Origin: Acidimicrobiia bacterium UBA4744
GTDB taxonomy: Bacteria > Actinomycetota > Acidimicrobiia > Spongiisociales > UBA4744
Length of the DNA stretch: 64,000 nt
Direction: 5' to 3'
NCBI GenBank assembly: GCA_002403855.1
Contig: DHIO01000006.1
Span: forward strand, 111,356-175,355
The notes beneath the pieces are model-generated. The model was not told the origin of the DNA and did not search any database. It worked only from the letters and a program-made list of their open reading frames with translations. This document shows, piece after piece, positions 20,987 to 40,149 of this stretch; the first letter of the stretch is position 1, and the number at the start of each line of letters is the position of its first letter. Made by a program: the position numbers and the translations under genes.

Positions 20987-21499
20987 CTATCGAACCAGAA
21001 CCACCGAGCAGGGGGCAAGCCGTGCCAGCTTGGTGCCGGTCGAACCGAGCAAACCCTCGAAACGGCCCCGTCCGTGCGTGCCGATGAGGAGGAGGTCGGC
21101 ATTGGTCTCCTCGATCAGCCGCAGGACTGCGGTAGAGGGAGCGTCGCTTTCACGGGCTACGACGGTCGGTGTGATCCCCTTCGACTCCAGGGCCTGCTTC
21201 ACACGATCCGTTCGTTTGGTCGCCTGATCATCGACGTAGCGGGCGATCATCGCGTCATCGCCGGGCCACTGCGACGTCAAGGTTCCGGCAGTGGGCTGTC
21301 CCACATACTCACTGTCTTCGTCGATCCTCGCCTTCGGGGGAGGAGTTCGATAGAACGAACGCAGCTCTATCAACAGGGTGCGGGGTACCTCAATCGCAGT
21401 CATCAGAGTCACCGAGTCCCCCTCCGCCAGGAGGCGGGCGGTCAGGTCTGCTGCGGTCTCAGGGTCGAGGTCGCCGTCGGTGGCGATGATCATATGCAT
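20987..21499 (-). CDS. universal stress protein (UspA family)
   Basis: 170 aa. Contains MHMIIATDG...LLLIGTHGRGRFEGLLGSTGTKLARLAPCSVVLVR, including the characteristic GSV C-terminal ATP-binding motif. Confidence 0.8.
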   Translation of the reverse strand: MHMIIATDGDLDPETAADLTARLLAEGDSVTLMTAIEVPRTLLIELRSFYRTPPPKARIDEDSEYVGQPTAGTLTSQWPGDDAMIARYVDDQATKRTDRVKQALESKGITPTVVARESDAPSTAVLRLIEETNADLLLIGTHGRGRFEGLLGSTGTKLARLAPCSVVLVR

Positions 21500-21654
21500 C
21501 TTGGCTGCTCCTTCGCGTGGGGACGAGGTTAGTGGAGTGCCCGATTCATTTGCCCGGGTTGAAGCGGATGGGTCTCCCGTGACGTGGTTCTTCCGTCCTT
21601 CAGATGAATGGCCGGCAGAGGTGGTGGATCCCGTCGGGAGTCGCCGGTGATCTG

Positions 21655-22398
21655 CTAGCCGTGGAACAATCGCACGGCAGTGTCGGTGGTGGCGGCCGCC
21701 ACCTCGTCGCAGGTCATCTGCCAGACGAGGGCGAGCGCGGCTCCGACCAGTCCGATGTTGGCCGGATCATTGGGCTTCTCCCGGTGGTGAGATGGGCAGA
21801 GGTGCGGTGCGTCTGTTTCCACCATCGCCCGATCAGGTGGCACCAAGGCCGCTCCTCGACGGATCATGTCGTCGGTTCCGAAGAGTACGGGACCGGCGAA
21901 CGAGAAGGTCACCCCCAGATCGAGGAAGCGACGGGCCCAATGCGGACCACCCGACCAACAGTGCATGATCACCCGTTCGCCGGTTCCGGTGTGCTGGATG
22001 ATCTCGTGGACCTCCCGGAAAGCGTCCCGGCAGTGCACGATGACGGGCTTGTCGAACTCGATGGCCAGATCGAGCAAGTCCCGGAAGGCAGTCAACTGGA
22101 CGTGCCGAGGGGCAAGGTTTCGGTAGAAGTCCAGGCCGGTTTCACCCACGGCGATTGCCTGGGGAACCAGCTCAGCGATCCTGTTTCGTTCTTCCGGCCA
22201 CCGTTCAGCCTGGTCCGGGTGCAAACCGGCCGCTGCGAATACTCGACCGGCGAACCGCCTAGCCAGGGCCAAAGCGGCTTGTGACGACGTGGCGTCCACT
22301 CCCGGCACCACCAGCCAGGAAACCTGAGGCGCCCTTTCCAGCATCGTGTCCGGCGCTTCGTCGACCAACTGCAAGTGGCAGTGAGAGTCGACCCACAC
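21655..22398 (-). CDS. tatD: TatD-family metal-dependent hydrolase/DNase
   Basis: A GTG start gives VWVDSHCHLQ, followed by the ETGLDFY and VIVHCRDA motifs and DAP near the C-terminus. The upstream part of the long ORF is non-genic. Confidence 0.8.
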   Translation of the reverse strand: MWVDSHCHLQLVDEAPDTMLERAPQVSWLVVPGVDATSSQAALALARRFAGRVFAAAGLHPDQAERWPEERNRIAELVPQAIAVGETGLDFYRNLAPRHVQLTAFRDLLDLAIEFDKPVIVHCRDAFREVHEIIQHTGTGERVIMHCWSGGPHWARRFLDLGVTFSFAGPVLFGTDDMIRRGAALVPPDRAMVETDAPHLCPSHHREKPNDPANIGLVGAALALVWQMTCDEVAAATTDTAVRLFHG

Positions 22399-22460
22399 GC
22401 GTGCGAAACGATTGCCCGCCGGTTCTCCGGCGTTCTGCTCCGGCCAATCCGATTGCAGGT

Positions 22461-22763
22461 TCACACTCCGCGCAGTGTGGTCCTCACCAACAGCGCCGCT
22501 CCGTGAGCGGCTCGATGCACCGTCAGGATGATCAGTCCGAGCGCGGCGGCCAGCAGAACCACGACCCGGGAGAGGAAGACCAGCCCGAGCAGTCCGGCCG
22601 AGGCGCCGAGGAACACTTTCCATGCCGAGCTGCAGAATGCCCCGCCCCCGCACAGATCCGCGATAGCGATCACGCCCAGCAGTCCCAGCAGGGATACGGC
22701 GGCGACCATCGGCACTGCGAAGGTCAGTCGAAAAAACCAACCGTTGTTCGTACGTTGTCGCAT
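22461..22763 (-). CDS. small membrane protein (3 predicted TM helices), hypothetical
   Basis: 100-aa hydrophobic ORF preceded by AAAGGAG 7 nt upstream of the ATG. Lies immediately downstream of the hydrogenase operon. Confidence 0.55.
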   Translation of the reverse strand: MRQRTNNGWFFRLTFAVPMVAAVSLLGLLGVIAIADLCGGGAFCSSAWKVFLGASAGLLGLVFLSRVVVLLAAALGLIILTVHRAAHGAALLVRTTLRGV

Positions 22764-22966
22764 CAGCTACTCCTTTGCGACGCCGTACGATCGCACGATT
22801 CGTTTTCGTGCCGCCGATTGGCTTCATCACCATGATATCACCCGACCGGCTGTTGCCCTAGGGTCACCTGGCCTCTTTGGAAAGAGACAGAGGTCCAACT
22901 GGATACCTGTCGTGACATCGAGCGGACCCGGACGTTGACACGATCGACGGCGATTCCCATTTTCCG

Positions 22967-23476
22967 TCACCCTTTCGAAGGAGCCGTCCGGGTCCGCTCG
23001 AAACCGAGTTCTGAGCGGGCGATTTCCTCTGCCCAGGATTCCCATGCTTCTGCTACGGGGGGCGTGAAACTCTCTCCGAAGGTGCTGGTCTCATCCACCG
23101 CCAGACCATGGATCACCACCTCCTGCGGCATCGGGATACCCAGCCTCTCACCCATCTCGAGCACTGCGCGGAACGGGAGTGTGTGGAACGACCGGTAGCC
23201 AAATCCGTGGGGTAGGTCCTCCGGCGTAGCCCGCAGGGTGGTGCCCGGCGGGAGATCCGAGGAAACGAAAGCATCGATGATGACCACGCGGTCGTAACCG
23301 CTCATGAGTGAAAGCAGATCAACGGTCGCCACGCAGGCTTCGGCGAACTCGGCCCGATCGCCCGCCAACGCTTCAACACGACGTACCGTTCGCAGGCCCA
23401 CCCCATCGTCGGACAGGATGTCATTGCCGAGCCCAAGCACCAAGGTGCGGGGCAGGGCACCTTGGTGGTCACTCAT
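22967..23476 (-). CDS. [NiFe] hydrogenase maturation endopeptidase
   Basis: LVLGLGNDILSDDGVGLRTV is the HybD/HoxW family motif. 169 aa, immediately downstream of the large subunit. Confidence 0.85.
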   Translation of the reverse strand: MSDHQGALPRTLVLGLGNDILSDDGVGLRTVRRVEALAGDRAEFAEACVATVDLLSLMSGYDRVVIIDAFVSSDLPPGTTLRATPEDLPHGFGYRSFHTLPFRAVLEMGERLGIPMPQEVVIHGLAVDETSTFGESFTPPVAEAWESWAEEIARSELGFERTRTAPSKG

Positions 23477-23484
23477 CCGACGTC

Positions 23485-24948
23485 CTAGTCGCGTACCCGG
23501 TGGGCGATGATCTCACCTCGCGGGTCGCGAACGGTCACCTCCATCGGCATCTGACCGGGCAGGGAATGAGTAGCGCACGCCATGCAGGGGTCGTACGCCC
23601 GGAACGCCATCTCGATCATGTTGAGAACCCCGTCGGAGATCTCTGCCGTCTTCTCGAGAAGACCCTTGGCCGCTTTCTTGATCGAGAGGTTGATGGCAGC
23701 GTTGTTGTTGGTGGTCCCGACGATCAAGTTGACGGCGGTGAGGATCCCATCCTCATCGGTCTTGTAGTGATGGATGAGGGTCCCTCTGGGAGCCTCCACC
23801 ACCCCTACCCCTTCGTCGGGGGTCTCCGTTGGAAGGGTCCGAATGTCGGGGTTGGTGATCTCCGGATCGCGCGCCAGGGCGTAAGCGGTTTCGGCCGCGT
23901 TCACCAGCTCGATGACGCGAGCCCAGTGGTAGGCCAGTGTGAAATGGACGGGCCGTCCACCCAGGGTGTCCATCATCCGCTCGTACTGTTCCTGGGCAAG
24001 CGGCGTCGACATTCCGTCGGCGACGTTCAATCTCGCCAGGGGAGCAGCCCGATAGACCCCGCTATCTTGGCCGTCGGTCATTCCGCTCCAGCCGCGTGCC
24101 TTGAGGTATGGAACCTTGAGGTACGTCCAAGGCTCAACTCGCTCTTCGACGTGATCGAGGTATTCATTGGGTCGAAACCGGGCTATCTCGGCGCCTTCCG
24201 TATCCACGATTCGGATGTGACCGTCGTAGTAGTCGGGCTGGTTGTCCTCATTTACGAGGCCCATGTAGTGGGTTTCGTGCCGGAAGGTGTCGCCGGTGAT
24301 CAAGTCGACATACGCAGGATTCGCCAGGACGACGTCCTCCAGGATCTTCACCGTGAACTTGCCGAATTCCACCAACTCGGCGGTGATTTCCTCAGCCGTC
24401 TGCCGTTCGTCTTCGGATAAGCCGCGGGTGACGCCGCCGGGCAGGGAGGTCACCTGGTGAATGGAACGCCCCCCGAGCAGCTTGATGAGCTCCTGAGCGC
24501 GAGCGCGACTCTTGATAACCGTCTTACCGGTTTCGATGCCAACCTTCTGGATCAACCCGAAGATATTGCGTTCCGCCACTGGTGCGGTGGGACCCACCAC
24601 GAAGTCGGGACCACCGAGGATGTAGAAATGGACCGAGTGGTCGGCGACGAAGAACGTGTTGTAGAGCAGACGGCGGAGTTTCTTGGCGGTCTCCGGCGGA
24701 TCGACGTGGTAGACCGCGTCGGCTGCCTTGGCGCTGGCCATGTGGTGGGCCTCAGGGCATACCCCGCAGATGCGGGTCGTGATGCGCGGCAGCTCCTCCA
24801 CCGGCCGGCCGACGCAGAACTCCTCGAAGCCTCGCAGCTCGGGGATGCGCAGGTAGGCATTGTCCACGTGCCCGTCGTCGTCCATGAAGATATCGATCCG
24901 GCCGTGGCCCTCCAGGCGGGTGATCGGGTCGATGGAGATCGTCTTCAT
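23485..24948 (-). CDS. mvhA: [NiFe] hydrogenase large subunit, group 3 (MvhA-like)
   Basis: Start MKTISIDPITRLEGHG. The N-terminal Ni-binding motif is RICGVCPEAH and the C-terminal motif is DPCMACATH. About 487 aa, preceded by a GGGAGGG RBS. The long ORF extension above 24948 overlaps the small-subunit gene and is not coding. Confidence 0.9.
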   Translation of the reverse strand: MKTISIDPITRLEGHGRIDIFMDDDGHVDNAYLRIPELRGFEEFCVGRPVEELPRITTRICGVCPEAHHMASAKAADAVYHVDPPETAKKLRRLLYNTFFVADHSVHFYILGGPDFVVGPTAPVAERNIFGLIQKVGIETGKTVIKSRARAQELIKLLGGRSIHQVTSLPGGVTRGLSEDERQTAEEITAELVEFGKFTVKILEDVVLANPAYVDLITGDTFRHETHYMGLVNEDNQPDYYDGHIRIVDTEGAEIARFRPNEYLDHVEERVEPWTYLKVPYLKARGWSGMTDGQDSGVYRAAPLARLNVADGMSTPLAQEQYERMMDTLGGRPVHFTLAYHWARVIELVNAAETAYALARDPEITNPDIRTLPTETPDEGVGVVEAPRGTLIHHYKTDEDGILTAVNLIVGTTNNNAAINLSIKKAAKGLLEKTAEISDGVLNMIEMAFRAYDPCMACATHSLPGQMPMEVTVRDPRGEIIAHRVRD

Positions 24949-25934
24949 GGTTGAACCCTCCCGAAGGTGGAGTGCGGCAGGCTGAATCTGTGGAACGTTC
25001 CCACGGGATCGGCGATCTGGTCGAGAATCGCTTGGATTTCGGTCGCTTCGGTGGCGTCGACAACCGAGGCGAGAGCCGACATCATGTTGAGGCCTTGATC
25101 CCGCACGTTGGGAGGCGGGCCGTAGCAACCCCGGCAGGGGCTGCCGGCACCGACACAGAGCCCTCCGCAACCGGACCGGGTGGCGGGGCCCATGCACACG
25201 ATGCCCTGATCGAGCAGGCACAGCTCGGGATCGGCGATGATCTGATGGGGCCGGACGAACTCCTTGATCCGCTTCTCTTCCCGGGTGCGCAAACACTCCT
25301 CGCAGACTGTCTGGTCCCCGGCGCCGATCACGGCTCCCGGTGGCGGCAACGGCCCCCCCGAGACGATCAACTCGATGACCTCCCAAATGCGATGCGCCTC
25401 GGGTGGGCACCCCGGAATGAAGTAATCGACGTCGACCACCTGATCGAGAGTCTTGACCGACTCGAAGAATGTGGGAAGCGACACCTGCCCTTCCGGTAAG
25501 TCCCAAATGGTCTGGGGCTCGACTCGATCTGGATTCACAGTTGAAGGCGACGCGTGATATGCGGCGTTGAAGATCGCCTCCTTGGTAGTGGCGTTGGCCA
25601 GCCCGGGAATGCAGCCTTCCATGGCGCAGGACCCGAAGGCAACCAGAGTCTTGGACTTCTCCCTGAGGACCTGGGCCAGGTGCTCGTTCTCCGAGGTTCT
25701 GATGGCGCCGTTGAACAAGCACAAATCGATGCTGTCCGGTTCCATGCCTTCCACATCGGCGTACTTGACGTCCATGGCCACCGGCCAGAAGACCAGGTCG
25801 AAGTTGGCCGGTACCTCGAGCACCTTCTCATGGAGTTCGAGGATGGCGATCTCGCAGCCGCCACAGCTGGCCGCCCAGTACAGCGCCAGCTTGGGCTTGG
25901 TGGCCGTCTGCCCGGCGACGTCCTGCATGGTCAT
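24945..25934 (-). CDS. mvhG: [NiFe] hydrogenase small subunit, group 3 (MvhG-like)
   Basis: ALYWAASCGGCEIAIL proximal-cluster motif, CMGPATRSGCGGLCVGAGSPCRGCYGP distal-cluster motif, and a ferredoxin-like C-terminus. 329 aa. There is a 4-nt overlap with the large-subunit start. Confidence 0.85.
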   Translation of the reverse strand: MTMQDVAGQTATKPKLALYWAASCGGCEIAILELHEKVLEVPANFDLVFWPVAMDVKYADVEGMEPDSIDLCLFNGAIRTSENEHLAQVLREKSKTLVAFGSCAMEGCIPGLANATTKEAIFNAAYHASPSTVNPDRVEPQTIWDLPEGQVSLPTFFESVKTLDQVVDVDYFIPGCPPEAHRIWEVIELIVSGGPLPPPGAVIGAGDQTVCEECLRTREEKRIKEFVRPHQIIADPELCLLDQGIVCMGPATRSGCGGLCVGAGSPCRGCYGPPPNVRDQGLNMMSALASVVDATEATEIQAILDQIADPVGTFHRFSLPHSTFGRVQP

Positions 25935-25962
25935 GGCTTGCCCTTTCCTCTCGATCCGGGTG

Positions 25963-26379
25963 TCATTGCTTCAGCTCCAACGGTCCTAGCTCGCGGATCC
26001 TGTTCTCCATCTCCCAGCTCACCTTGCTGTACTTGTCGCCTTCAGATGCCGAGATCCATTCCAGCCGGAGACGTTCTTCGTCGATACCGAACCCACCGAG
26101 CAGCTTCTTCATCATCAGCGTTCGGCGCAGGCATAGGTAGTTGCCCTCTGAGTAGTGGCAATCGCCGGGGTGGCAGCCGGCCAGCAAGACACCGTCGGCG
26201 CCGGATTTGAGCGCGGTGAAGACGAAACCGGGGTCGATCCTCCCCGAGCACATAACCCGGATCGGGCGGAGGGTGGGCGACGACTGTATGCGCGATACAC
26301 CGGCCAGATCGGCACCCGAGTAGGCGCACCAATTGCACAAGAATCCAACGATCTTGGGATTGAATCCGTTCTCCGGCAT
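25963..26379 (-). CDS. mvhD: MvhD-like hydrogenase iron-sulfur subunit (Hdr/Mvh electron-transfer adaptor)
   Basis: The internal start MPENGFNPKIVGFLCNWCAYSGADLAG...RVMCSGRIDPGFV is the MvhD signature. A GGAGGA RBS lies upstream, and the gene begins 11 nt after the hdrA stop. Confidence 0.8.
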   Translation of the reverse strand: MPENGFNPKIVGFLCNWCAYSGADLAGVSRIQSSPTLRPIRVMCSGRIDPGFVFTALKSGADGVLLAGCHPGDCHYSEGNYLCLRRTLMMKKLLGGFGIDEERLRLEWISASEGDKYSKVSWEMENRIRELGPLELKQ

Positions 26380-26389
26380 AGGTTTCCTC

Positions 26390-29300
26390 CTAGACGGCCA
26401 GCAGGCCGCCGATCTCCGCGTAGATCTGTTGGTCGGTGAATCCTGCACCGACGATGGCCGAGGCCGGGCAAGCGGCCACACAGATGCCGCAGCCCTTGCA
26501 CAAGGCCTCTTCGACCCGAGCCACCTTCTTGTCCTCGACCCAGGAGATGGCGTTGTACGGGCAGAGGGCGTTGCACACCCGGCATCCGCCACACAACTCC
26601 TCCTGCACTTCGGCTTTGATCGGATCGATCGTCATCTCGCCCCGGGCCATCCATCCCAGCATCTTCGACGCCGCCGCCGAAGCTTGGGCGACGGTGTCGG
26701 GGATGTCCTTCGGTCCCTGGGCGCAGCCGGCTATGTAGATCCCGTCGCTGGCCGTGCCGATGGGGTCTAGTTTCGGGTGTCGCTCCAGGAGGAACCCGTC
26801 GGCGCTCTGGCTGAGGTGCAGCAGCTGGCGAAGCTCTTCGGAACCGTCGCTCGGCACCATGGCCGGGCAAAGGATCACCAGGTCGACCGGGACCTCGCGC
26901 CGTACTCCCAGCAGGGTGTCTTCGGCTTTCACCAGCAGTTTCCCCGGACTTCCCTCGGGAGCTTCGATCACCTCGGCCACCTTGCCGCGCACCATCGTGG
27001 TGCCCTCGTCCATGATGCGGGTGTAGAACTCTTCATAGCCTTTCCCGAAGGCCCGCATGTCGATGTAGAACTGGTAGACCTCGGCCTCGGTCCTCTCCCG
27101 CACGAGATGGGCGAATTTGAGTGCATACATGCAGCACACCCGGGAGCAGTAGCGGTTGTAGTTCTCGTCCCGGGAACCGACGCAGTGGAGGATCGCCACC
27201 GAGCGGGGTGCCTCCCCGTCGATCAAGACCTTGCCGTCCGTCGGTCCGGTAGAGGAGAGCATCCGTTCGAACTCGAGACCGGTTATCACGTTCTCCAAAC
27301 GCCCGTAGCCGTACTGAGGAATGACGCTCGGGTCGAACTGCTTGTAGCCGGTGGAGACCATGATCTGACCCACGTCGAGATGGTCCACCTCGTCCTTCAT
27401 GGAGTGATCAACGGCACCGGGCTTGCAGGCATCGACACACTGGTAGCAGTCGACGCATACTCCACAGTGCAGACAGCGCTGTGCCTCGGCCACGGCCTGC
27501 TCTTCGGTGAAACCGAGTTCGACCTCGTCCCAACCGCCGATTCTTGTTTCAGCCTCCAGCTTGGGCATCTGAGTGCGGGGCACTCTCTCGATCTCTTCAT
27601 ATGGTTTTGAGTACCGGTGCGGTCGGCCCTCGACCCGGGGAATCTCGGCCGGCACCTGATGCGTTTCGAAGCCCTCGAGAGGTTGTCCGCGTAGGTACTT
27701 GTCGATTGCCTCAGCGGCTCGTTTTCCGGCTCCCATAGCGGCGACGACAGTCGCCGGTCCCGATACGGCATCGCCGCCGGCGAAAACACCGGGGAGGTTG
27801 GTGGCAAAGGTCTCCGCGTCGACGTCCAACGTTCCCCACGGGGAAAGCTGCATCTCTCCGGCGCCGGGGTCGTCTTCGAGGTAGTCGAGATCGGCGCGCT
27901 GCCCAATGGAGGCAACCACCATGTCGAAGCCCAGGTCGTGCTCCGACCCCTCGATGGGGATCGGTCGGCGCCTGCCCGTATCGTCTGGTTCCCCGAGCTC
28001 CATCTCGATGACCCGGAGGCCGGTGACTTTGCCGTCCTTGCCGAGCACTTCGACCGGTGCCCGGAGGAACAGGAAGCGAATGCCCTCGGTCTCGGCATCG
28101 ATGGCTTCGTGCTCCTCGCAAGGCATTTCCACCCGGGTACGCCGGTAGACCACCGTGACCTCTTCGGCGCCTTCCCGCAAGATCGTGCGGGCCACGTCGA
28201 TTCCGCAGTTGCCGCCCCCGATCACCGCCACCTTCCGGCCCACAGGCTGCGATTCTCCTAGTGCTTTGTTGTGGAGGAACTGCACGGCGTCCACCACTCC
28301 GTCGAGGTCCTCGCCCGGCACGTGCATGGCGATACCGCGATGCGCCCCGGTAGCGACGAAGATCGCTCCGTACCCGGTTTCCCGGAGTTGCTCGAGCGTG
28401 ACGTCACGTCCGAAGGCGACGCCGGTTTGAAACTCGACACCCATGCGACGGATGAAGTCGATGTCCTGTTGCAGCTGCTCGCGAGGCAGGCGGTAGGCCG
28501 GGATGCCGAGGGCGAGCATACCTCCCAAGACTTCTTCCCGTTCGTAGACGGTGGACTGGTAGCCGCGTTGCGCCAGATTGTGGGCACAGGCCAGACCGGC
28601 CGGGCCACTTCCCACGATCGCGACTTTCTCGCTGTGGCGGACCGGCGGTTCGGGGACCTTGACCTCGCCGTTGTGCTGAGCCTCCCAGTCCAGGGCGAAC
28701 CGTTTGAGGTGCTGGATGGCGATCGGCTCTTCCACGAAGCCGCGGTTGCACTGTTCTTCGCACGGGTGGTAGCAGACCCGCCCGCATACCACGGGCAGCG
28801 GGTTGGATTTGCGGATCAGTTGGGCCGCCTCGGCGAATCGCCCGTCACCGATGAGAGCCACATATCCGGCTGCCTCTTGGCCGATCGGGCAGGCCGACCA
28901 ACAAGGTGGGCGTTCGTCCTTTTCGATGAGATAGCTGTTGGGGATCGCTTGTGGGAAGGTCTTGTGGATAGCTGTGCGCGACGCCATGCCCATGTCGAAG
29001 ATGCTGGGCACTGTGACCGGACACACTGCGATGCAGTCCTGGCACGAGGTGCACGCGTCGGTGACGTAACGGGCCCGCTTGCGTACTCGAACTCGGAAGT
29101 TGCCGGCATAGCCGGAGACCTCCTCGATGTCGGACATGGAGAGGATCTGAACATTCTCAGTTTGGGCAACCGAGACCATCTTGGGGGTCAGGATGCAGGA
29201 CGAGCAGTCCAGGGTTGGGAAGGTCTTGTCGAAACGAGCCATGTTGCCGCCGATGGTCGAGTCCCGCTCCACGAGGTAGACCTGGTTGCCCCCCTGGGCC

Positions 29301-29794
29301 AGGTCGAGAGCGGCCTGGATGCCGGCGATCCCGGCCCCGATGACCATCGTGTCCGGGTAGATGGGAGCCTCGGAGGCGAACAGAGGCTCCTGGTGAACGA
29401 CCCGCTCGATGGCGGCATTGCAGAGGGCTATCGCCTTGCCGGTTGCCGCCGCCGGATCGGAGTGGATCCACGCGCAGTGCTCCCGCACGTTGACCATCTG
29501 GAAGAGGTACGGGTTGAGTCCGGTGCGACCTACCGCCCCGCGGAAGGTGAGCTCATGCATCATGGGTGAGCAGGCGGCCACCACCACCCGATCGAGCCCC
29601 TGCTCACGAATGTCCTGCTCGATGAGATCTTGTCCGGGTTCCGAACACATGAACTGGTAGTTGCGGGACACAGACACGCCCGGCAGGCCGGATACGTAGT
29701 CGGAGACCTCGTCCACGTTCACCGTGCCGGCGATGTTCGTACCGCAGTGGCACACGTAGAAGCCGACCTTTGGTTTTCCTTCGTCACTCATCAC
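26390..29794 (-). CDS. hdrA: HdrA-like flavoprotein (CoB-CoM heterodisulfide reductase subunit A family) carrying an inserted GltD/NfnB/SudA-like NAD(P)H-binding module
   Basis: 1134 aa. N-terminus KVGFYVCHCGTNIAG and the FAD site MVIGAGIAGIQAALDLAQ match HdrA. Residues about 330-700 carry a GltD-like Fe-S region (VCGRVCYHPCEEQCNRG) plus two Rossmann folds (KVAIVGSGPAGLACAH, KVAVIGGGNCGIDVA). The C-terminal half contains several CxxCxxCxxxCP ferredoxin motifs, as in HdrA. Confidence 0.8.
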   Translation of the reverse strand: MMSDEGKPKVGFYVCHCGTNIAGTVNVDEVSDYVSGLPGVSVSRNYQFMCSEPGQDLIEQDIREQGLDRVVVAACSPMMHELTFRGAVGRTGLNPYLFQMVNVREHCAWIHSDPAAATGKAIALCNAAIERVVHQEPLFASEAPIYPDTMVIGAGIAGIQAALDLAQGGNQVYLVERDSTIGGNMARFDKTFPTLDCSSCILTPKMVSVAQTENVQILSMSDIEEVSGYAGNFRVRVRKRARYVTDACTSCQDCIAVCPVTVPSIFDMGMASRTAIHKTFPQAIPNSYLIEKDERPPCWSACPIGQEAAGYVALIGDGRFAEAAQLIRKSNPLPVVCGRVCYHPCEEQCNRGFVEEPIAIQHLKRFALDWEAQHNGEVKVPEPPVRHSEKVAIVGSGPAGLACAHNLAQRGYQSTVYEREEVLGGMLALGIPAYRLPREQLQQDIDFIRRMGVEFQTGVAFGRDVTLEQLRETGYGAIFVATGAHRGIAMHVPGEDLDGVVDAVQFLHNKALGESQPVGRKVAVIGGGNCGIDVARTILREGAEEVTVVYRRTRVEMPCEEHEAIDAETEGIRFLFLRAPVEVLGKDGKVTGLRVIEMELGEPDDTGRRRPIPIEGSEHDLGFDMVVASIGQRADLDYLEDDPGAGEMQLSPWGTLDVDAETFATNLPGVFAGGDAVSGPATVVAAMGAGKRAAEAIDKYLRGQPLEGFETHQVPAEIPRVEGRPHRYSKPYEEIERVPRTQMPKLEAETRIGGWDEVELGFTEEQAVAEAQRCLHCGVCVDCYQCVDACKPGAVDHSMKDEVDHLDVGQIMVSTGYKQFDPSVIPQYGYGRLENVITGLEFERMLSSTGPTDGKVLIDGEAPRSVAILHCVGSRDENYNRYCSRVCCMYALKFAHLVRERTEAEVYQFYIDMRAFGKGYEEFYTRIMDEGTTMVRGKVAEVIEAPEGSPGKLLVKAEDTLLGVRREVPVDLVILCPAMVPSDGSEELRQLLHLSQSADGFLLERHPKLDPIGTASDGIYIAGCAQGPKDIPDTVAQASAAASKMLGWMARGEMTIDPIKAEVQEELCGGCRVCNALCPYNAISWVEDKKVARVEEALCKGCGICVAACPASAIVGAGFTDQQIYAEIGGLLAV

Positions 29795-29955
29795 AGGCTC
29801 CAGTCAGTGTGTCGCTCGTTGTCGAAGGGGTCGATCATTGCGGGGAAGGGCGGGGGAGTGCCGATAGGGGAAGACAGCCGCTTCCGGCTGGTTGATGACG
29901 CTCCGGCGTGGTGCCGGCGCCGCGAAGATCCAAGCATCTCGCGTAGTGACTCCCT

Positions 29956-29971
29956 TGTGAATCCATTCACA
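29956..29971. promoter_or_regulatory. perfect CRP-type palindrome TGTGAatccatTCACA upstream of hdrA
   Basis: Exact match to the TGTGA-N6-TCACA consensus. It sits in the 242-bp intergenic gap between the etfD-like gene and hdrA, about 165 bp upstream of the hdrA start. Confidence 0.45.
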
Positions 29972-30036
29972 ATGATGGTGGTCGTCTCCCCGGCTTGCCA
30001 GGGCCAAAAGGCTCTCCCTGGGGACTTCAAGACCCA

Positions 30037-32031
30037 TCACAAGGCCTCGGCCACCAGTTCGATGAGGTCTTTGACGGCCAGACGATCCGCGTAGCCGCCG
30101 CTCTTGGCGGCGTCCTCGAACATCACCAGGTCCTTGGGGCAGGAGACGATCAGCATTTCCACCCCCTCCAAACCGGCGGCTTCTTCGACTCTCATGGCGG
30201 CCGGGCGTTGTTGGGTGTCTCCCTCTTCCATCCAGATGCGACCTCCTCCCGCTCCACAGCACATCGCCCGATCACCATGGCGGGGCATCTCGACGAGTGT
30301 GCATCCGGCTGCTTCGATGACCCTGCGCGGCGCGTCGTACACGCCGTTGTAGCGACCGAGGTAGCACGGGTCGTGGTACGTGACCCGGTATCCCAGCTCC
30401 CGGCCTAGTCGCAGACGGCCGTCGGCGATCAACTGATCCAGCAGCTCCGAGTAGTGCAGTACCGGTCGCCCGCCGTTGATCTCCGCCGGGTATTCGTTCT
30501 TGAGGGCGTTGTAGGTATGGGGATCGGTGGTGACGATGCTCCGGAATTCGCAGGCGTTCAGAGCCGCAGCGTTGTCCTCGGCGAGCATCTCGAACAAGCC
30601 CTCTTCCCCGACCCGCCGCACATCGTTGCCGGCATTGCGTTCCGCCTCGTAGAGCAGTCCAAAATCGAGATCGGCACGGCGAAAGACCTCTGCGGTCGTC
30701 TTGGTGGCACTGGCCAACGTGGCGCTGTATGCGGCATAGTCGCCCGTGAACCAGAGGTAGTCCACGGGTTCCCGCCGGGCATCCTTGATCTTCTCCGGCA
30801 GGCCTTTGGTCCATTTGGCACGCGCCCGCTCCGACTGGCCGAACGAATTGCCGTAACGACCCAGATTGGCCATCGCTTCCTGGAGCATCCCGTCCATCCG
30901 CCCTTCCATCACGAGGTGGCGCCGCATGTCGACGATCGGCGTAACGTGCTCGATGAAGAGCGGACACTCCTGATCGCAGGCGGAGCAGGTGACGCAGGCC
31001 CAGAGGATTTCTTCGGTGATGACGTCGCCGACGAGCTCGCTCTCGAGCACGGCCCCGTTCTGCTGTCCATCACGGAGCGCTACTCCCCGCTGAATCAGGT
31101 TGTCGCGGAGGGACATGATGAGCAGCTTGGGAGAAAGGGGCGACCCGCTGGCGTAGGCGGGACACACGTCCTGACACCGACCGCATTCGGTACAGGTGTA
31201 GAAGTCGAGCAACTGGCGCCGGCGGAACTGTTCTACTGCGTTCACGCCCACGTCGCCATTGAATTCCGGTGCCGGCGGCAAGCGGCCGGGCGGGTCCAGG
31301 TTTCGCAAGAAGACGGCGGGGATCGAGGTGACCACATGAAAGTGTTTGCCCCCCGGAAGCTCGGTGAGGAAGGCGAGCACCACGATCAGGTGGATCCAGT
31401 AGGCGGCCTCTTCGACCACTTCCAACGTCGGGTCGCTGAGGCCCGACAGCACGGCACCCACGGCCGAGGCCACCGGTCGCCAGTCGGCCAGAGGATCCTC
31501 GCCGAGTTCGATGCGGATCCCATTGATCACCAGCAGGCTCACCACGATGGTCAAGATGAACGACAGGACCATCACCGCCTGGGCCCGGTGGCTTCCCTCG
31601 TAGCGGGGCGGATTGACGACCAGGCGAAGGTAGAGGGCGTACACGACGGCGATCCCTACGAGAGCAGCAAACAGATCTTGGAGGAGAGCCAACGGACCGA
31701 ATTCGCCGATCACCGGGATCACGAACCCGGGGTCGGCGAAGGCCACGAGTCCTTCGATGATCGCCTGCAAGATCGTCAGGATCAGGATGACGAAGCCCCA
31801 GAAGACGAAGAAGTGGGCGATACCCGGCGCCAGGAAGCGGAACAGGCGCAGTTGGCCTCCCACATACACGACCAGCCCCTTGATTCGCTCGATCCACCGG
31901 CCGTAAGGCGGTCCCGGTCGACCGCGTTGTAGGTTCACCCACAAGAGTTGATAGACCCGCAGGCCGAAGACGGCGAAGGAAACCACCAGGAGAAGGACGA
32001 CGACGATGGACTTGACCGCTTCGTACTCCAT
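30037..32031 (-). CDS. membrane-anchored Fe-S oxidoreductase: NarI-like di-heme cytochrome b domain fused to an HdrD-like 4Fe-4S/CCG domain (EtfD / DsrMK-HdrED-like)
   Basis: 664 aa. The N-terminus has five hydrophobic helices with conserved His (HFFVFWGF, YWIHLIV, HFHVV). Then come CTECGRCQDVCP and CVTCSACDQECP, and C-terminal CCG motifs (PCYLGR, MCCGAGGG). Confidence 0.8.
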   Translation of the reverse strand: MEYEAVKSIVVVLLLVVSFAVFGLRVYQLLWVNLQRGRPGPPYGRWIERIKGLVVYVGGQLRLFRFLAPGIAHFFVFWGFVILILTILQAIIEGLVAFADPGFVIPVIGEFGPLALLQDLFAALVGIAVVYALYLRLVVNPPRYEGSHRAQAVMVLSFILTIVVSLLVINGIRIELGEDPLADWRPVASAVGAVLSGLSDPTLEVVEEAAYWIHLIVVLAFLTELPGGKHFHVVTSIPAVFLRNLDPPGRLPPAPEFNGDVGVNAVEQFRRRQLLDFYTCTECGRCQDVCPAYASGSPLSPKLLIMSLRDNLIQRGVALRDGQQNGAVLESELVGDVITEEILWACVTCSACDQECPLFIEHVTPIVDMRRHLVMEGRMDGMLQEAMANLGRYGNSFGQSERARAKWTKGLPEKIKDARREPVDYLWFTGDYAAYSATLASATKTTAEVFRRADLDFGLLYEAERNAGNDVRRVGEEGLFEMLAEDNAAALNACEFRSIVTTDPHTYNALKNEYPAEINGGRPVLHYSELLDQLIADGRLRLGRELGYRVTYHDPCYLGRYNGVYDAPRRVIEAAGCTLVEMPRHGDRAMCCGAGGGRIWMEEGDTQQRPAAMRVEEAAGLEGVEMLIVSCPKDLVMFEDAAKSGGYADRLAVKDLIELVAEAL

Positions 32032-32047
32032 CTCGGCTGCCTGTTCC

Positions 32048-33022
32048 CTACCCTCCTTTGGCTGCTCGCACCCGTTCGATCAGCACCGGCAGAAGGTCGA
32101 GCAAGTCGACTTCCGATCCGTACTGGGCGACGTCGAAGATCGGCGCTTCCGGGTCGGTATTGACGGCGATCGTCAAATCACTGTCGCTCATCCCCTCGAC
32201 GTGCTCAGGGGCTCCGCTGATACCCAGGGCCAGATAGACGTCGGGTTTGACCCGCTTCCCGGACTTGCCGACCATGCGCGTGGTGGGGAGCCAGCCTTGA
32301 TCTACGACCGGGCGGGACGCACAGACTGCGCCACCAAGCGTCTCGGCTAGTTCCTCGGCTAGCTCCACGTTGTCTTCGTTGGCTATGCCACGTCCGATCG
32401 CCACCAGGATGGGAGTGGTGGAGATGTCGATGTCCTCCGCCTTGGGCTCTTGATACCCCGCAAAGGCGACCCGTCCGCTTCCCAGCGGCGAAACGGAGGT
32501 TCTGGTCACCTCCGGCGCGGTTTCCCCCCTTCCTTGTTCCGGCTTGTAGCCGCCCGGCACCATGGTGATCAGGGCGTTTGGTTCGGGAATGTCGCCTTCG
32601 ACGAGGATCTTCCCACCGCAGATCTGGCTGATGAATCGCAGCCTGCCGTTCGCCGCGTCGACACTCCGACACCGGCTCACCAGCGGCATGCTCAGGCGGG
32701 CGGACAGAACCCCGGCTACCTCGGCTCCCATCGATGTGTCGCCGAAGAGCACGCAGCGGGGCGGATCGCCTCCGATCAAATCCGCCAGGATGACGTTGTA
32801 GTGCTCCGGGTTGAAGTCGGCAAGGGCGGGGTCGTCGATGTACACAACTCGATCTGCCGCCAGATCACCGGCCAGGGTCTCGCCGTCATGACCGAGCAAC
32901 ACGGCCGCGACGCCACCACCGGTTCCGGTAGCCAGCCGGCGGGCGGCGGCCACTGCCACGTAGGTGATGTCCGCGACTTGCCCCCGCAGGTGCTCGACGA
33001 TGACGTGTATGTCTTGGCTCAT
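32048..33022 (-). CDS. etfA: electron transfer flavoprotein alpha subunit
   Basis: 324 aa. Contains the C-terminal FAD-binding region PDVYLALGISGAPEHVEGM (ALGISGA...H) typical of EtfA/FixB. Confidence 0.85.
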   Translation of the reverse strand: MSQDIHVIVEHLRGQVADITYVAVAAARRLATGTGGGVAAVLLGHDGETLAGDLAADRVVYIDDPALADFNPEHYNVILADLIGGDPPRCVLFGDTSMGAEVAGVLSARLSMPLVSRCRSVDAANGRLRFISQICGGKILVEGDIPEPNALITMVPGGYKPEQGRGETAPEVTRTSVSPLGSGRVAFAGYQEPKAEDIDISTTPILVAIGRGIANEDNVELAEELAETLGGAVCASRPVVDQGWLPTTRMVGKSGKRVKPDVYLALGISGAPEHVEGMSDSDLTIAVNTDPEAPIFDVAQYGSEVDLLDLLPVLIERVRAAKGG

Positions 33023-33031
33023 CGTTCCCCC

Positions 33032-33799
33032 TCACGCCTTCCCCAGCTCTCGGAGGAGATCGACGATCCTCCCCGCGACCTCATCCTCATCGCCGGTGAT
33101 CATGGTCGCCCGTTCGGCGGTCTCCGGCTTGAACATCGAATCGACCATCGGTCCTCCGGTGGTATCAAGATCCGGTGCCGCCTGCTCGTCGACGGCGGCC
33201 GTCTTCATCGCCTGACGGATTCGGCTGATGGCGACGTAGCGGGGTGGCGATTCCGCTGCTTGAACCCCGAGCACTGCCGGCATCTCGACGTCCATCTCGG
33301 CGATCAGACCGCCCGGGTATTCCTTGCGGACCCGGCATCGACCGTTGATAGGAGCGATCCCCGACACGTAACCCACGTAGGGCATACCGACGTATTCGGC
33401 GAGCAGCGGACCCAGTGACCCATCCAGATCGTTGTGGGCCTGTACACCTACCAGCACCAGATCTGGCTCGAGGATTCGAACGGTGGTGGCGTAGAACCGC
33501 GCCATGGCATGATTGTTGACATTGACCCCGTAGTCGACTCCGGTCAGCTTGATGAGCCGGTCGACCCCTTTGGCCGATGAGGCAAACAGGACATCATCGA
33601 CTCCCTCGCCGTCCAGGCTGATAACCGATACCGTCCCGGAGAGGCTCTCCTTGAGTAGGAGAGCCTGTTCGAGGGCGTGCTCATCGACCTCGTTGAGAAT
33701 GAATCGGAGCCAGGTCGTGTCGAGGGCCGTCCCGCCGTCATCGATCTCCAGTTCTTCAACCAGGTCGGGAACGAGCTTGACCGGTACCACGATGTTCAT
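33032..33799 (-). CDS. etfB: electron transfer flavoprotein beta subunit
   Basis: MNIVVPVKLVPD N-terminus typical of EtfB/FixA, in a 255-aa protein. Confidence 0.85.
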   Translation of the reverse strand: MNIVVPVKLVPDLVEELEIDDGGTALDTTWLRFILNEVDEHALEQALLLKESLSGTVSVISLDGEGVDDVLFASSAKGVDRLIKLTGVDYGVNVNNHAMARFYATTVRILEPDLVLVGVQAHNDLDGSLGPLLAEYVGMPYVGYVSGIAPINGRCRVRKEYPGGLIAEMDVEMPAVLGVQAAESPPRYVAISRIRQAMKTAAVDEQAAPDLDTTGGPMVDSMFKPETAERATMITGDEDEVAGRIVDLLRELGKA

Positions 33800-33803
33800 G
33801 ACT

Positions 33804-35024
33804 TCACCCCTGCTCGATCAATGAATCCACCAACAACTCGGCAATGTCCTTGACCACGAGGTGCTTGGCCCCTGTCACCGTCTTGGTGGCATCCTCGAAA
33901 CGAGGCATCTCGTAAGGACAGGTCACGGCCAGGATGTCGGCCCGGACGTCGATGGCTTCCTGCACTCGAATCTCGGACAACCGGAAGTGAGCCTTCTCCC
34001 ACCGGAAACCGTCGAGCCACATCCCACCCCCCCCTCCACCGCAGCAGATGCTGGTTTCCCGGGTGTGCAACATTTCTACCAATTCGACTCCGGGAACAGC
34101 GGTCAGCAACCGCCGGGGATCCTCGTAGATGCCGTTGGCCCGTCCCAGATAGCAGGGATCGTGGAAAGCCACCCGGGCCGGGATCTCTCGAGTGAGCAAG
34201 GGTTGGAGCCGATCGAGCCGCCCTGCCAGGAATTGGCTGTAGTGGGCCACCGGGTAGGAGATACCCAACGCCGGGTACTCGTTCTTGAGAGCGTTGAACG
34301 CGTGAGGATCGGTGGTCAGGATTTCTTCGAATTCGTACTTGCCGAATGCCCTGGCGTTCTTCTCGGCCAGCATCTCGAACAGCCCCGTCTCACCCGCCAG
34401 GCGTTGAGAATCCCCGTCGCTGTTCTCTTCAGGGCCGAGTATGCCGTAGTCGACGTCGAGGCGGTTGAGAACCCTGGCCAGCGCTTGTGAAGCTTGGCGG
34501 CCGCGCGGATGGTACGAGGCGTAGTCGCCCACGAACCAAAGGACTTCCACCGGGCGCTTGATCTTGCTGAGGATGGGGACCGCGGGTTCGATGTCCATCG
34601 CCCAATCGGCGCGCCGCCGCGGTGGCTCACCGAGGGCGTTTCCATAGCGCTGCGAGTTCTCGAGGGCTTCCTGGAGTTCGGCGGGGATGCTGCCGGTCAA
34701 CAGCATTTCCTCCTTGGCCCGGGTCATCAGGCCGTTGGTGAGGGGGATCTGCGCCGGACAAATCTGTGCACAGGCGTAGCAGGAAACACAGAGCCAGAGC
34801 GAGTCGACTCCCATCACCTTTTCGAACATCCCCGCTCGCATGGCGGAGATCATCTTGTGGGGAGGGAAATCCATCAAGTAGCCAAACGGACAGATGCCGC
34901 TACACGCGGCACACTGCAGGCAAGCGCGAATTCGCCGGCCCTCTTCCACTTCTTCCAGGCTGAGACTGAATGAATCCGTGAAGCCGGCCGCGTCGGCGGC
35001 CTCCATCGCCGGTGCTGCCATCAT
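33804..35024 (-). CDS. soluble HdrD/GlcF-like Fe-S oxidoreductase (two 4Fe-4S motifs plus two CCG domains)
   Basis: CLQCAACSGICP, CVSCYACAQICP, PCYLGR and ICCGGGGGG motifs. The start is taken at the ATGATG at 35024, 5 nt after GAAAGGTG. The ORF extends to 35048 with a TTG. Confidence 0.75.
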   Translation of the reverse strand: MMAAPAMEAADAAGFTDSFSLSLEEVEEGRRIRACLQCAACSGICPFGYLMDFPPHKMISAMRAGMFEKVMGVDSLWLCVSCYACAQICPAQIPLTNGLMTRAKEEMLLTGSIPAELQEALENSQRYGNALGEPPRRRADWAMDIEPAVPILSKIKRPVEVLWFVGDYASYHPRGRQASQALARVLNRLDVDYGILGPEENSDGDSQRLAGETGLFEMLAEKNARAFGKYEFEEILTTDPHAFNALKNEYPALGISYPVAHYSQFLAGRLDRLQPLLTREIPARVAFHDPCYLGRANGIYEDPRRLLTAVPGVELVEMLHTRETSICCGGGGGGMWLDGFRWEKAHFRLSEIRVQEAIDVRADILAVTCPYEMPRFEDATKTVTGAKHLVVKDIAELLVDSLIEQG

Positions 35025-38674: not shown

Positions 38675-39247
38675 GTGTTTCCTGCCACGACTTCACCCCA
38701 ATTCAGCATGGAAGTCATGAACCTTCTCTACGCAGGCGACGGGAAACCGCCGAACCTCTGCGTGCATTGTTCGGTCTGCTCGGCTACCTGCCCGGCTGTG
38801 GAGTTCATGGACCACTCCCCGCGCATGCTCTTGGCCATGATCAACGCCGGGATGAAGGACGAGGTGCTTGCCAGCAACACGTTCTGGACTTGTGCCTCGT
38901 GCTTTGCCTGCTCGGAGCGGTGTCCCCAAGGGATACACGTAGCCCAGATCATGTATGCACTGAAGCGTTACTCGCTGTGGCACAACCGGTACCCGGAAGG
39001 GTTGGTTGGGCCCGATTTCTCACGGCGTTTCGTGAAGACCATCCTTGCCAACGGAAAGTCGTACGAGCCCGGCTACGCCCCTGCCTTTATCTGGGAGGGG
39101 GGGCTTCCGGGGCTTCTGTACGAGATGCTGGGAGCCGTCAAGCTATTGCGGCGCGGGCGACTCCAGTTGATTCCCAAGAAGATCAAACGCGTGGACAACT
39201 TCCGCCAGATGATCGGGCGGATCATACCCCTGGAGGGTATCTCGTGA
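38675..39247 (+). CDS. hdrC: heterodisulfide reductase subunit C-like (two 4Fe-4S motifs)
   Basis: CVHCSVCSATCP and CASCFACSERCP motifs in a protein of about 190 aa. The GTG start lies directly after the response-regulator stop, preceded by GGGGTGATGAG. Confidence 0.75.
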   Translation: MFPATTSPQFSMEVMNLLYAGDGKPPNLCVHCSVCSATCPAVEFMDHSPRMLLAMINAGMKDEVLASNTFWTCASCFACSERCPQGIHVAQIMYALKRYSLWHNRYPEGLVGPDFSRRFVKTILANGKSYEPGYAPAFIWEGGLPGLLYEMLGAVKLLRRGRLQLIPKKIKRVDNFRQMIGRIIPLEGIS

Positions 39248-40149
39248 AGACGTACGCCTACTACCCCGGTTGTTCCCTCGAGTCGATGGCGGTCAGCTAC
39301 CACGTGTCCGCCGTGGAGGTTGCTCATCTTCTCGGCGTGACGCTGGTGGAGATCGAGGATTGGAACTGTTGTGGTGCCACCGCATATTCCCACGTGGACG
39401 AGCTGCTGGCACAGGTCTTGAGTGCCCGCAACCTCGCCCTGGCCGAGAAAGAGCAACGGCCGGATCTGGTCGCTCCGTGCAGCGGTTGTTTCAAGAACCT
39501 CTATTTCGCCAATGAGCACATGCTCGAAGACGCCGATCTGATGGACCACATGAACTTCGCCCTGGAGGCTGATGATCTCAGTTATTCCGGCGGTGTCACC
39601 GTCCATCACCTGATGGATTTGTTCGTGAGGGAGGTCGGCCTCGATGCGATCCGCGAAAAGGTGGAAGATCCGCTCGAAGGCCTGCGCGTTGCCCCGTACT
39701 ACGGGTGTCAGATGACCCGCCCGAGGAAGCCGGGGGAGGGTCTGGAGGATGTGGAAGGGCCGCGGTTCTTCGAGGAGTTGGTCGGGGCGCTCGGGGCGAT
39801 ACCGGTCGACTATCCCTATCGGATGCGCTGCTGTGGGGCCTCGTTGATAGCGACCAGCCGGCAGGCGGCCCTCTCCATGCTGCGGGACTTGCTGCAGAGT
39901 GCCATGGACGCCGGCGCGGACGTGATTGCCACGTCATGCCCGCTGTGCCAGATCAACCTGGAGGTCTACCAGTCCGAGGTCAACCGGGAACTCGGCACGG
40001 AGTTCTCCATGCCGATCATGTACTTCACCCAGTTGATGGGCCTCGCACTGGGGATCAAGCCGAAGCAGTTGGGGATCGGTAGCGAGGTCGTCCCGGTCGC
40101 TCCGGTCTTGGCCTGTCGCCAGAGCCAGCGGACTGCAGTGGCCGGCTGA
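39244..40149 (+). CDS. hdrB: heterodisulfide reductase subunit B-like (two CCG domains)
   Basis: VKTYAYYPGCSLE N-terminus with the CCG motifs NCCGATAY and RCCGASL. 301 aa. The GTG start overlaps the hdrC stop (GTGA). Confidence 0.8.
   Translation: MKTYAYYPGCSLESMAVSYHVSAVEVAHLLGVTLVEIEDWNCCGATAYSHVDELLAQVLSARNLALAEKEQRPDLVAPCSGCFKNLYFANEHMLEDADLMDHMNFALEADDLSYSGGVTVHHLMDLFVREVGLDAIREKVEDPLEGLRVAPYYGCQMTRPRKPGEGLEDVEGPRFFEELVGALGAIPVDYPYRMRCCGASLIATSRQAALSMLRDLLQSAMDAGADVIATSCPLCQINLEVYQSEVNRELGTEFSMPIMYFTQLMGLALGIKPKQLGIGSEVVPVAPVLACRQSQRTAVAG

Follow-up and report, generated by a model that had tools for sequence, protein, structure and literature searches.

The window analysed here is a stretch of 64,000 nt from Acidimicrobiia bacterium UBA4744 (contig DHIO01000006.1, positions 111,356 to 175,355). 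The listing of its open reading frames (ORFs) contains one at 26390..29794 on the minus strand that an earlier note had read as the heterodisulfide reductase subunit HdrA with a GltD/NfnB-like insert, a reading that is borne out by matches to Pfam, NCBIfam and the PDB. The gene is referred to here as hdrL, the name given to the same fusion in Desulfobacterium autotrophicum in 2009 (PMC2702500). Later names are "HdrA-NfnB fusion", used for ANME-1 in 2022 (PMC9012536), and "type III HdrA", from a survey of 2025 that also modelled it (PMC12054007), and the fusion is widespread. The novelty implied in the earlier note is therefore not upheld: the window HdrL is one more member of a known and named family, and its architecture is not new. 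The frame opens with a GTG at 29794, directly followed by an ATG at 29791 with a GGAG upstream of it. Public gene calls take the ATG, which gives a gene at 26390..29791 on the minus strand and a product of 1133 aa plus stop, with the GTG as the alternative start.

In a phmmer comparison with all PDB chains, residues 6-292 of HdrL aligned with residues 3-291 of the Methanothermococcus HdrA (5ODC_A) and residues ~778-1130 with residues 293-649 of the same chain (E 9e-201), and the same colinearity was found with the M. marburgensis and M. hungatei enzymes. No segment of the HdrA part is lost, none is duplicated, and there is a single insertion point. The N-terminal part (residues 1-292; 28916..29791, minus strand), which also aligns with residues 11-299 of 8RVU, carries a Cys-cluster domain at its N-terminus, the opening half of the thioredoxin-reductase-like flavin adenine dinucleotide (FAD) domain with GAGIAG and C196/C199, and, from the "inserted ferredoxin domain" of HdrA, the first of two Cys motifs (C247, C250, C253, C257). 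The C-terminal part (residues 778-1133; 26393..27460, minus strand) carries the second Cys motif of this ferredoxin domain (C779, C782, C785, C789) and the remaining FAD domain with K892 and a cluster site, followed by the C-terminal 2x[4Fe-4S] ferredoxin domain. Invariance was judged here and below in an alignment of the window HdrL with 27 full-length homologues of 57-94% identity (28 sequences). Invariant in it are all four CxxCxxCxxxC motifs (residues 247-257, 779-789, 1067-1077 and 1098-1108), K892, which corresponds to the FAD N5 partner K409 of 5ODC, C199, which corresponds to C197 of 5ODC, the ligand given to the cluster of the partner protomer, and the CVGSRD...YCSRVCC cluster site beside the HdrA FAD (C870/C882/C886/C887). 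HdrL holds a complete HdrA that is probably dimeric and would be competent for electron bifurcation. In NCBIfam the best HdrA-type families are HdrA2 (E 1e-242) and HdrA (E 1e-190), with scores of 806.7 and 632.8 bits below the equivalog cutoffs of 1100 and 1400. Because the match is split by the insert and the score falls under the cutoff, HdrL is not a methanogen-type HdrA equivalog. The GltD-type family PRK12771 is passed with 550 bits against a cutoff of 516.

The insert spans residues 293-777 (27461..28915, minus strand), a stretch of 485 aa with no counterpart in canonical HdrA and larger than the ~370 aa claimed earlier. It lies between the two Cys motifs (247-257 and 779-789) of the inserted ferredoxin domain. 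HdrA is indeed interrupted, as the earlier note had it, but the break is one clean insertion that affects a single ferredoxin domain, not multiple ferredoxin domains. The best PDB matches of the insert are 9BOV_A, 9N5U_A and 8OH5_C (E 1e-125 to 1e-103), colinear over residues 292-785, and residues 295-703 match Thermotoga maritima NfnB (4YLF_B, E 3e-98 to 1e-99) as well as Pyrococcus furiosus NfnL, Xfn, GltD and dihydropyrimidine dehydrogenase. At these E-values the identity of the module is beyond chance.

The domain profiles expected from the earlier reading are all present. Pfam places Fer4_20 at residues 294-373, Pyr_redox_2 at 389-689 (E 6e-45), the separate start of an HdrA-type FAD domain (FAD_oxidored/GIDA-type) at 147-185 and the C-terminal 2x[4Fe-4S] domain at 1060-1113. 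The Fer4_20 match (28673..28912, minus strand; profile positions 29-111 of 113) covers the main part of an iron-sulfur (Fe-S) domain and contains C297, C301, C336, C340, C344 and C348. The earlier note had rightly seen an Fe-S region in the insert, although its pattern is not CxxxCxxC but CxxxC ... CxxxCxxxCxxxC plus a C-terminal CxxC. The FAD and NAD(P)H Rossmann folds occupy residues 389-703 (27683..28627, minus strand), as indicated by Pfam, the alignments, the structural model and Foldseek. Both dinucleotide-binding motifs reported before were recovered in the translation, GSGPAGLACAH at residues 394-404 and GGGNCGIDVA at 525-534. The six cysteines named above together with C773 and C776, GSGPAG (394-399), R434, GGGN (525-528) and YRR...EMP (549-551 and 555-557) are invariant; R434 is the N5 arginine of NfnB and corresponds to R239 of StnC. 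YRRxxxEMP is common in the alignments to HdrL, the NADPH-using NfnB, NfnL, StnC and the NfnA of Bfu-type enzymes. Since this motif is shared with NADPH-dependent enzymes, NADP(H) appears more likely than NADH as the nucleotide of HdrL. Within residues 525-558 (nt ~28118-28219) the window protein reads GGGNCGID and EMPC, as opposed to GGGNTA(I/M)D and EMPA in the family consensus, NfnB and StnC, so that two extra cysteines lie near its NAD(P)H site.

The alignments describe the insert as circularly permuted relative to NfnB. Its last 39 residues (739-777, ...EEQAVAEAQRCLHCG; 27461..27577, minus strand) align separately with the start of NfnB (residues 5-43, ...LEEALEEAQRCLQC; EAxRCLxC) and alone match positions 4-36 of the Fer4_20 profile. 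When residues 739-777 were artificially re-joined in front of residues 293-373, a single Fer4_20 match over positions 4-109 of 113 was obtained with 107.8 bits, compared with 79.7 bits over positions 29-111 in the native order. The chain accordingly enters the module partway through the first cluster motif, passes through both Rossmann folds and comes back to supply the missing CxxC (C773 and C776). C776 is three residues away from C779 of the HdrA ferredoxin motif, and the Fe-S domain of the insert is therefore placed at the exit clusters of HdrA.

An AlphaFold2 model computed from the 28-sequence alignment has a mean predicted local distance difference test (pLDDT) of 75 and a predicted template modelling score (pTM) of 0.60. 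Residues 300-700 are its best-predicted part (pLDDT ~85-95) and superpose on NfnL and GltD with template modelling (TM) scores of 0.78-0.79. In Foldseek against the PDB the insert resembles NfnL, NfnB and GltD with TM scores of 0.77-0.79 and a root-mean-square deviation of 2.5-3.0 A, and HdrA chains span the whole of HdrL with the insert as a gap. From these two sets of matches the insert is predicted to fold as an autonomous NfnB-like unit. A middle region that is simply the thioredoxin-reductase domain of HdrA counted twice was considered and rejected: the insert has an Fe-S domain of its own (Fer4_20) and two Rossmann folds and matches GltD/NfnB with E 1e-99 or better, and the FAD domain of HdrA that surrounds it is unbroken in sequence.

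A long frame of this kind could in principle be an assembly chimera, a frame fusion of hdrA and gltD genes or a pseudogene, and the conservation data rule out a chimera or pseudogene origin; nothing was found that speaks for an artefact of any of these kinds, and we consider one practically impossible. The HdrA sequence picks up exactly at its break point, the cofactor residues are invariant, and the identical protein is present on an independent public contig. In a homologue search of 5.8 billion proteins the best 120 matches were inspected; almost all are 1120-1163 aa long and cover the whole query with 57-94% identity, so that at least 120 full-length homologues carry the fusion with the same junction. 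Sources among the matches listed include Zixibacteria, Ignavibacteria (among them Rosettibacter firmus, which is in culture), Calditrichae, Aminicenantes and Latescibacteria. With a query of 123 residues spanning the C-terminal junction, 268 representatives at 50% identity were matched (E <= 1e-10), and most of the 150 representatives listed span the junction, with lengths up to ~1500 aa. Among them, P0181, P0203, P0216, P0224, P0230, P0239, P0288 and P0293 are ~1400-1530 aa long and have the GltD-to-HdrA junction at residues ~545-690; these larger fusions may correspond to the HdrL3 type with extra domains.

The genomic distribution was surveyed in contigs of one genome per species, and of the best 80 loci, 53 from many phyla have the in-frame order HdrA-N, GltD, HdrA-C. 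Bacterial hosts are Vicinamibacteria (the best, with 70%), Aminicenantes, Dehalococcoidia, Anaerolineae, a Firmicutes metagenome-assembled genome (MAG), Desulfobacterales, Syntrophobacterales, Acetothermia and an Actinomycetes MAG, and archaeal hosts are Bathyarchaeia, Hadarchaeota, Hydrothermarchaeales and Thermoplasmata. Homologous fusions, which the earlier note had proposed to look for in other taxa, thus occur in many bacterial and archaeal phyla. In eleven detailed loci from several phyla the junction lies at the same residues, and such a shared junction across phyla would favour a single origin of the fusion plus transfer; for the archaea, two insertion events have been argued (PMC12054007). 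In nine loci (L039, L044, L047, L049, L051, L053, L056, L060 and L065) the HdrA-N/GltD/HdrA-C match spans ~2.6 kb as opposed to 3.4 kb, which suggests shorter fusion variants, some of them beside etfBA and hdrD.

Downstream of hdrL on the minus strand follow mvhD, mvhG, mvhA and hycI, separated by gaps of 10-30 nt or overlapping. mvhD (25963..26379) starts 10 nt past the hdrL stop and encodes the [2Fe-2S] adaptor FlpD of 138 aa (PF02662, E 1e-49). The mvhG-type [NiFe]-hydrogenase small subunit (24945..25934; 329 aa, PF01058) and the mvhA-type large subunit (23485..24948; 487 aa, with RICGVCP and DPCMACATH) have VhuG and VhuA (384 bits) as their best NCBIfam matches, both under the equivalog cutoffs, and the last gene (22967..23476) encodes a hycI-type hydrogenase maturation protease (PF01750). 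The hydrogenase is assigned on its sequence to the group-3c type. The view in the earlier note that a pyridine-nucleotide site has been added to the HdrA preceding mvhDGA gains support from the independent GltD/NfnB-type unit on a fully equipped HdrA. Of the NfnAB-like connection proposed there, the NAD(P)H module stands, and a strict likeness to NfnAB does not, as the operon has no NfnA and the module is permuted and closest to StnC and Bfu-type NfnA.

For the function of this arrangement we lean towards a three-port redox machine, HdrL-MvhDGA, in which the insert would serve as a non-bifurcating NAD(P)(H) port that replaces free ferredoxin. In the canonical complex the low-potential path runs from FAD via the clusters HA3, HA5 and HA6 to polyferredoxin or ferredoxin, and the high-potential path from FAD via HA4 to HdrC and HdrB (PMC13580544, PMC9012536). 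The ferredoxin replacement is proposed because the insertion sits in the low-potential exit domain and its Fe-S domain is stitched to it within three residues. The position of the insertion likewise points to the wiring of the ports, as the motifs do to the nucleotide preference. It has been argued that the GltD domain would block the access of ferredoxin (PMC12054007). The first port would connect H2/H+ through MvhA, MvhG and MvhD with the HdrA FAD; at the second port, electrons would pass from this FAD via HA3, HA5 and HA6 to the two [4Fe-4S] clusters of the insert, its FAD and NAD(P)+, with NADPH the more likely nucleotide. The third port would lead from HA4, the cluster beside the HdrA FAD, to a CCG-type partner, which is HdrBC or HdrD in most relatives.

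The insert itself would be a plain converter between two-electron and one-electron transfer like the modules of GltD and StnC and not a second bifurcating flavin. Two bifurcation sites, with the NfnB-like FAD of the insert bifurcating as well, have been raised as a possibility for the HdrA-NfnB fusions of ANME-1 (PMC9012536), and R434 matches the arginine of NfnB that is in contact with N5 of its bifurcating FAD. However, the operon has no NfnA-type partner with its [2Fe-2S] cluster and second FAD (no NfnA-like gene was found by Pfam assignment among all genes at 22967-35021), the flavin of the insert has one visible electron exit, and the module is closer to StnC and Bfu-type NfnA. In StnC the flavin of the GltD module was shown to be non-bifurcating despite the conserved arginine (PMC10482914), and we regard a second bifurcation site in HdrL as very unlikely.

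We further infer the direction of HdrL-Mvh as well as the third partner. The standard potentials are -414 mV for H+/H2, -320 mV for NAD(P)+ and about -140 mV for the heterodisulfide. Environmental H2 pressures and a reduced NADPH pool would put H2 between the disulfide and NADP+, and the canonical roles of the ports would therefore be kept. The likeliest direction would then be, at low H2 pressure, H2 as the donor, with a high-potential disulfide-type acceptor pulling the reaction and NADP+ as the low-potential acceptor, and the machine would be reversible. The same wiring could be used the other way round, with NAD(P)H as the mid-potential donor entering through the GltD module and the HdrA FAD bifurcating to the disulfide and, through MvhD and MvhAG, to protons, so that H2 is made. 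This is the hypothesis put forward for the hdrA-mvhADG cluster of Bathyarchaeota (PMC12054007); it agrees with established redox values, by which NAD(P)H lies between the disulfide and H+/H2 when the H2 pressure is high or the couple is NADH/NAD+, and many hosts are fermenters or syntrophs that have NAD(P)H to dispose of. On the other hand, the low-potential exit of every solved Hdr would have to turn into an input and the MvhD branch into the low-potential exit, and the NADPH-type YRR motif is easier to reconcile with a pool of reductant for biosynthesis than with a catabolic sink for NADH. We therefore hold this direction to be rather unlikely, though a serious contender.

The CCG partner for the third port is not encoded next to hdrL in the window, where neither hdrB nor hdrC was found adjacent to the gene. 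In the surveyed relatives, mvhD lies directly downstream of the fusion gene in 27 of 49 loci, and directly upstream are hdrB (16 of 45 loci) or an HdrD-type CCG protein (9 of 45). Among the 31 loci with long flanks, 29 encode a CCG protein within 10 kb of the fusion gene and 11 a [NiFe] large subunit. The layout hdrC-hdrB-hdrL-mvhD-mvhG-mvhA is found in L002, L012, L023, L082 and L085; other recurrent layouts are hdrL-mvhD-...-hdrA-like-hdrC-hdrB (of the type of Sfum_0819-0824 in Syntrophobacter fumaroxidans), hdrD-hdrL-mvhD, and hdrL-mvhDGA-hycI alone.

Locus L082 is syntenic with the window. Its HdrL is 73% identical to that of the window, HdrL, MvhD, MvhG and MvhA together range from 72 to 85%, and downstream of the hydrogenase both loci continue with hycI, a 100-aa ORF and genes for TatD, Usp (universal stress protein), HNH, resolvase, MoxR, DUF58 and transglutaminase. 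In L082, unlike the window, a rubrerythrin-like-hdrC-hdrB string overlaps the start of hdrL. The hdrC-like and hdrB-like genes of the window (38717..40149, plus strand) lie 9 kb from hdrL, directly behind two-component system genes, and are 37% and 42% identical to the operon-linked pair of L082; the window lineage has therefore lost or replaced its operon-linked hdrCB. With 37-42% identity against 72-85% for the other subunits, the simple explanation that this pair is the partner displaced from HdrL was rejected; it has the look of an independent paralogue behind the two-component genes, and its service as the CCG partner of HdrL is possible but doubtful. The string at 35358-40149 on the plus strand consists of a histidine kinase with a cyclic-nucleotide (cNMP)-binding domain, a hybrid response-regulator/kinase and a response regulator, followed without gaps by the hdrC-like and hdrB-like genes. 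A rubrerythrin/ferritin-like gene precedes hdrC-hdrB-hdrL-mvhDGA in L082 (487-1005), L085 (7890-8423) and L002 (~1757-2263), with 56-59% mutual identity, and it has no match anywhere in the window.

In this lineage, HdrL-MvhDGA could be a plain, non-bifurcating NAD(P)+-reducing [NiFe] hydrogenase in which HdrA only relays electrons between MvhD and the GltD module, without any third partner. The window and L083, whose HdrL is 77% identical to that of the window, both have hdrL-mvhDGA-hycI without an adjacent orthologous hdrCB, and the hdrCB pair of the window is a distant paralogue tied to a two-component system. Against this, the ligands of the FAD-adjacent cluster and K892 are invariant, also in the protein of L083 (P0005), a CCG protein lies nearby in nearly all loci with long flanks, the hdrCB of L082 overlap the start of hdrL, and the partner may be encoded elsewhere in the genome. 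A hydrogenase of this simpler kind is in our view improbable.

Upstream of hdrL, after a gap of 245 nt, lie four genes in the same orientation (30037..35021, minus strand), which were assigned with Pfam and NCBIfam as an hdrD-like soluble Fe-S/CCG protein (33804-35021), etfB (33032-33799) and etfA (32048-33022), and by its N-terminal membrane domain, two [4Fe-4S] motifs and CCG domain as a membrane-anchored Fe-S/CCG protein of 664 aa (30037-32031). The triad of etfB, etfA and the membrane CCG gene resembles the cluster of Syntrophomonas wolfei (Swol_0696-0698, etfBA-DUF224) that encodes an EtfAB:quinone oxidoreductase (PMC3582634). It is possible that these four genes belong to the same functional unit as hdrL. 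Scans for promoters and terminators at 22-36 kb returned no more sites than in shuffled sequence and are silent on the limits of the operon. Genes of the etfBA and hdrD type also stand beside HdrL-like genes in L036, L044, L049 and L065, and in this position they occur in Syntrophobacterales, Syntrophorhabdus, Anaerolineae and Bathyarchaeia. Because of this recurrence we keep open a more speculative reading, in which HdrBC has been lost, HdrL-Mvh has come to stand directly behind these upstream genes, and the whole string of nine genes would form a membrane-associated assembly, with the membrane CCG protein serving the third port and the quinone pool or electron transfer flavoprotein, not a soluble disulfide, as the high-potential acceptor. 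In such an assembly H2, NADP(H) and electrons from fatty acids would be coupled within a single machine that bifurcates or confurcates, but we rate it as a long shot.

Several points weigh against the three-port machine with a NAD(P)(H) port that we favour. No report of a purified enzyme of the HdrL family was found in the literature, which leaves every functional step to inference, and without an adjacent orthologous hdrBC in the window or in L083 the third port may stand empty or have a partner that acts in trans. The conserved R434 means that the sequence of the insert allows a bifurcating second flavin, the GxGxxG motif has been taken to argue for NADH (PMC12054007), and the global confidence of the AlphaFold model is only moderate (pTM 0.60).

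Beyond these genes, the flanks of the window are made up of housekeeping genes, among them the fab genes, dinB, the dcw cluster and ileS, and the MoxR protein of the window falls into one 90% cluster with proteins named Acidimicrobiia bacterium. Downstream of the hydrogenase, positions 19669-22833 hold a 100-aa ORF without a Pfam match (22461-22763) and TatD-like, universal stress protein, HNH endonuclease and resolvase-like genes, a string that also follows the cluster of L082. The resolvase and HNH genes are a hint of past mobility; the GC content of the string does not differ from that of the flanks.

Taken together, HdrL-type proteins would use, in place of a diffusible ferredoxin, an NAD(P)H port joined covalently to a bifurcating flavoprotein, and would directly connect the pyridine-nucleotide pool with thiol/disulfide chemistry and with H2 or other donors coupled through MvhD. 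The family is far wider than the literature consulted suggests, with members in many bacterial and archaeal phyla. The window is no new kind of enzyme but a well-preserved example with a complete hydrogenase and a natural case without the HdrBC partner. Besides the identity and boundaries of the module, the conservation of its cofactor ligands and its gene neighbourhood, the present analysis adds that the insert is circularly permuted and akin to the GltD modules inserted in Bfu enzymes, that it bears an NADPH-type motif, that the fusion is broadly distributed among bacteria with a conserved junction, and that hdrCB has been lost in this lineage.

Among the closest known systems are the HdrL proteins of sulfate reducers. 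HdrL1-3 of D. autotrophicum HRM2 and Sfum_0824 of S. fumaroxidans have been described as fusions of heterodisulfide reductase and glutamate synthase that possess a site for NAD(P)H, and mvhD comes after every copy (PMC2702500, PMC5947623), and HdrABC/HdrL of S. fumaroxidans are abundant in sulfate-grown cells (PMC5947623). The loci of Desulfobacterales and Syntrophobacterales share with the window the order HdrA-N/GltD/HdrA-C, the junction and the downstream mvhD. However, they usually lack mvhGA and continue instead with an Fe-S protein, more hdrA-like genes and hdrCB, and some of their HdrL copies are selenoproteins or larger, whereas the window hdrL precedes a complete [NiFe] hydrogenase in Acidimicrobiia. 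In the archaea, the type III HdrA and HdrA9-11 of ANME-1 and Bathyarchaeota have an NfnB/GltD-like unit of ~500 aa that breaks the inserted ferredoxin domain as in the window (PMC9012536, PMC12054007). mvhADG adjoins type III HdrA in Bathyarchaeota as well (PMC12054007), and Bathyarchaeia loci are among the matches with 46-47% identity. These papers describe the fusions as rare (nine sequences) and archaeal and suggest NADH as their nucleotide and two independent insertions as their origin; the window HdrL, by comparison, comes from a bacterium, is part of a very large family and has an NADPH-type motif. A survey of HdrA evolution (bioRxiv 10.1101/2024.09.26.615249) covers only proteins of 640-775 aa and is uninformative for this fusion.

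Compared with the canonical HdrABC-MvhAGD complex of methanogens (5ODC, 8RVU), the HdrA core of HdrL aligns over its full length with all cofactor ligands (E ~1e-200), and mvhD, mvhG and mvhA are present, with Vhu/Mvh models as their best matches; the differences are the 485-aa NAD(P)H module on the ferredoxin exit domain and hdrBC that are not adjacent. NfnB/NfnL (4YLF_B, 5JCA_L) share with the insert the fold, two [4Fe-4S] sites, the FAD and NADPH folds and the N5 arginine. In the insert, however, the N-terminal piece of NfnB stands at the C-terminal end, an NfnA partner is missing, and the module is embedded in another protein. The GltD modules of StnC (8OH5_C) and of NfnA in the Bfu-type NfnABC (9BOV_A, 9N5U_A) are colinear with the insert from end to end, linker and terminal RCLxCG piece included. 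They too are inserted domains, and they act as NADPH ports that supply a chain of Fe-S clusters (PMC10482914, PMC11829005). In these Bfu enzymes, which are based on flavin mononucleotide (FMN), the host is not HdrA but a NuoG/formate-dehydrogenase-like subunit, and StnC has lost the first Cys of CGRVC, with a lysine instead, whereas the window HdrL keeps this Cys (C336).

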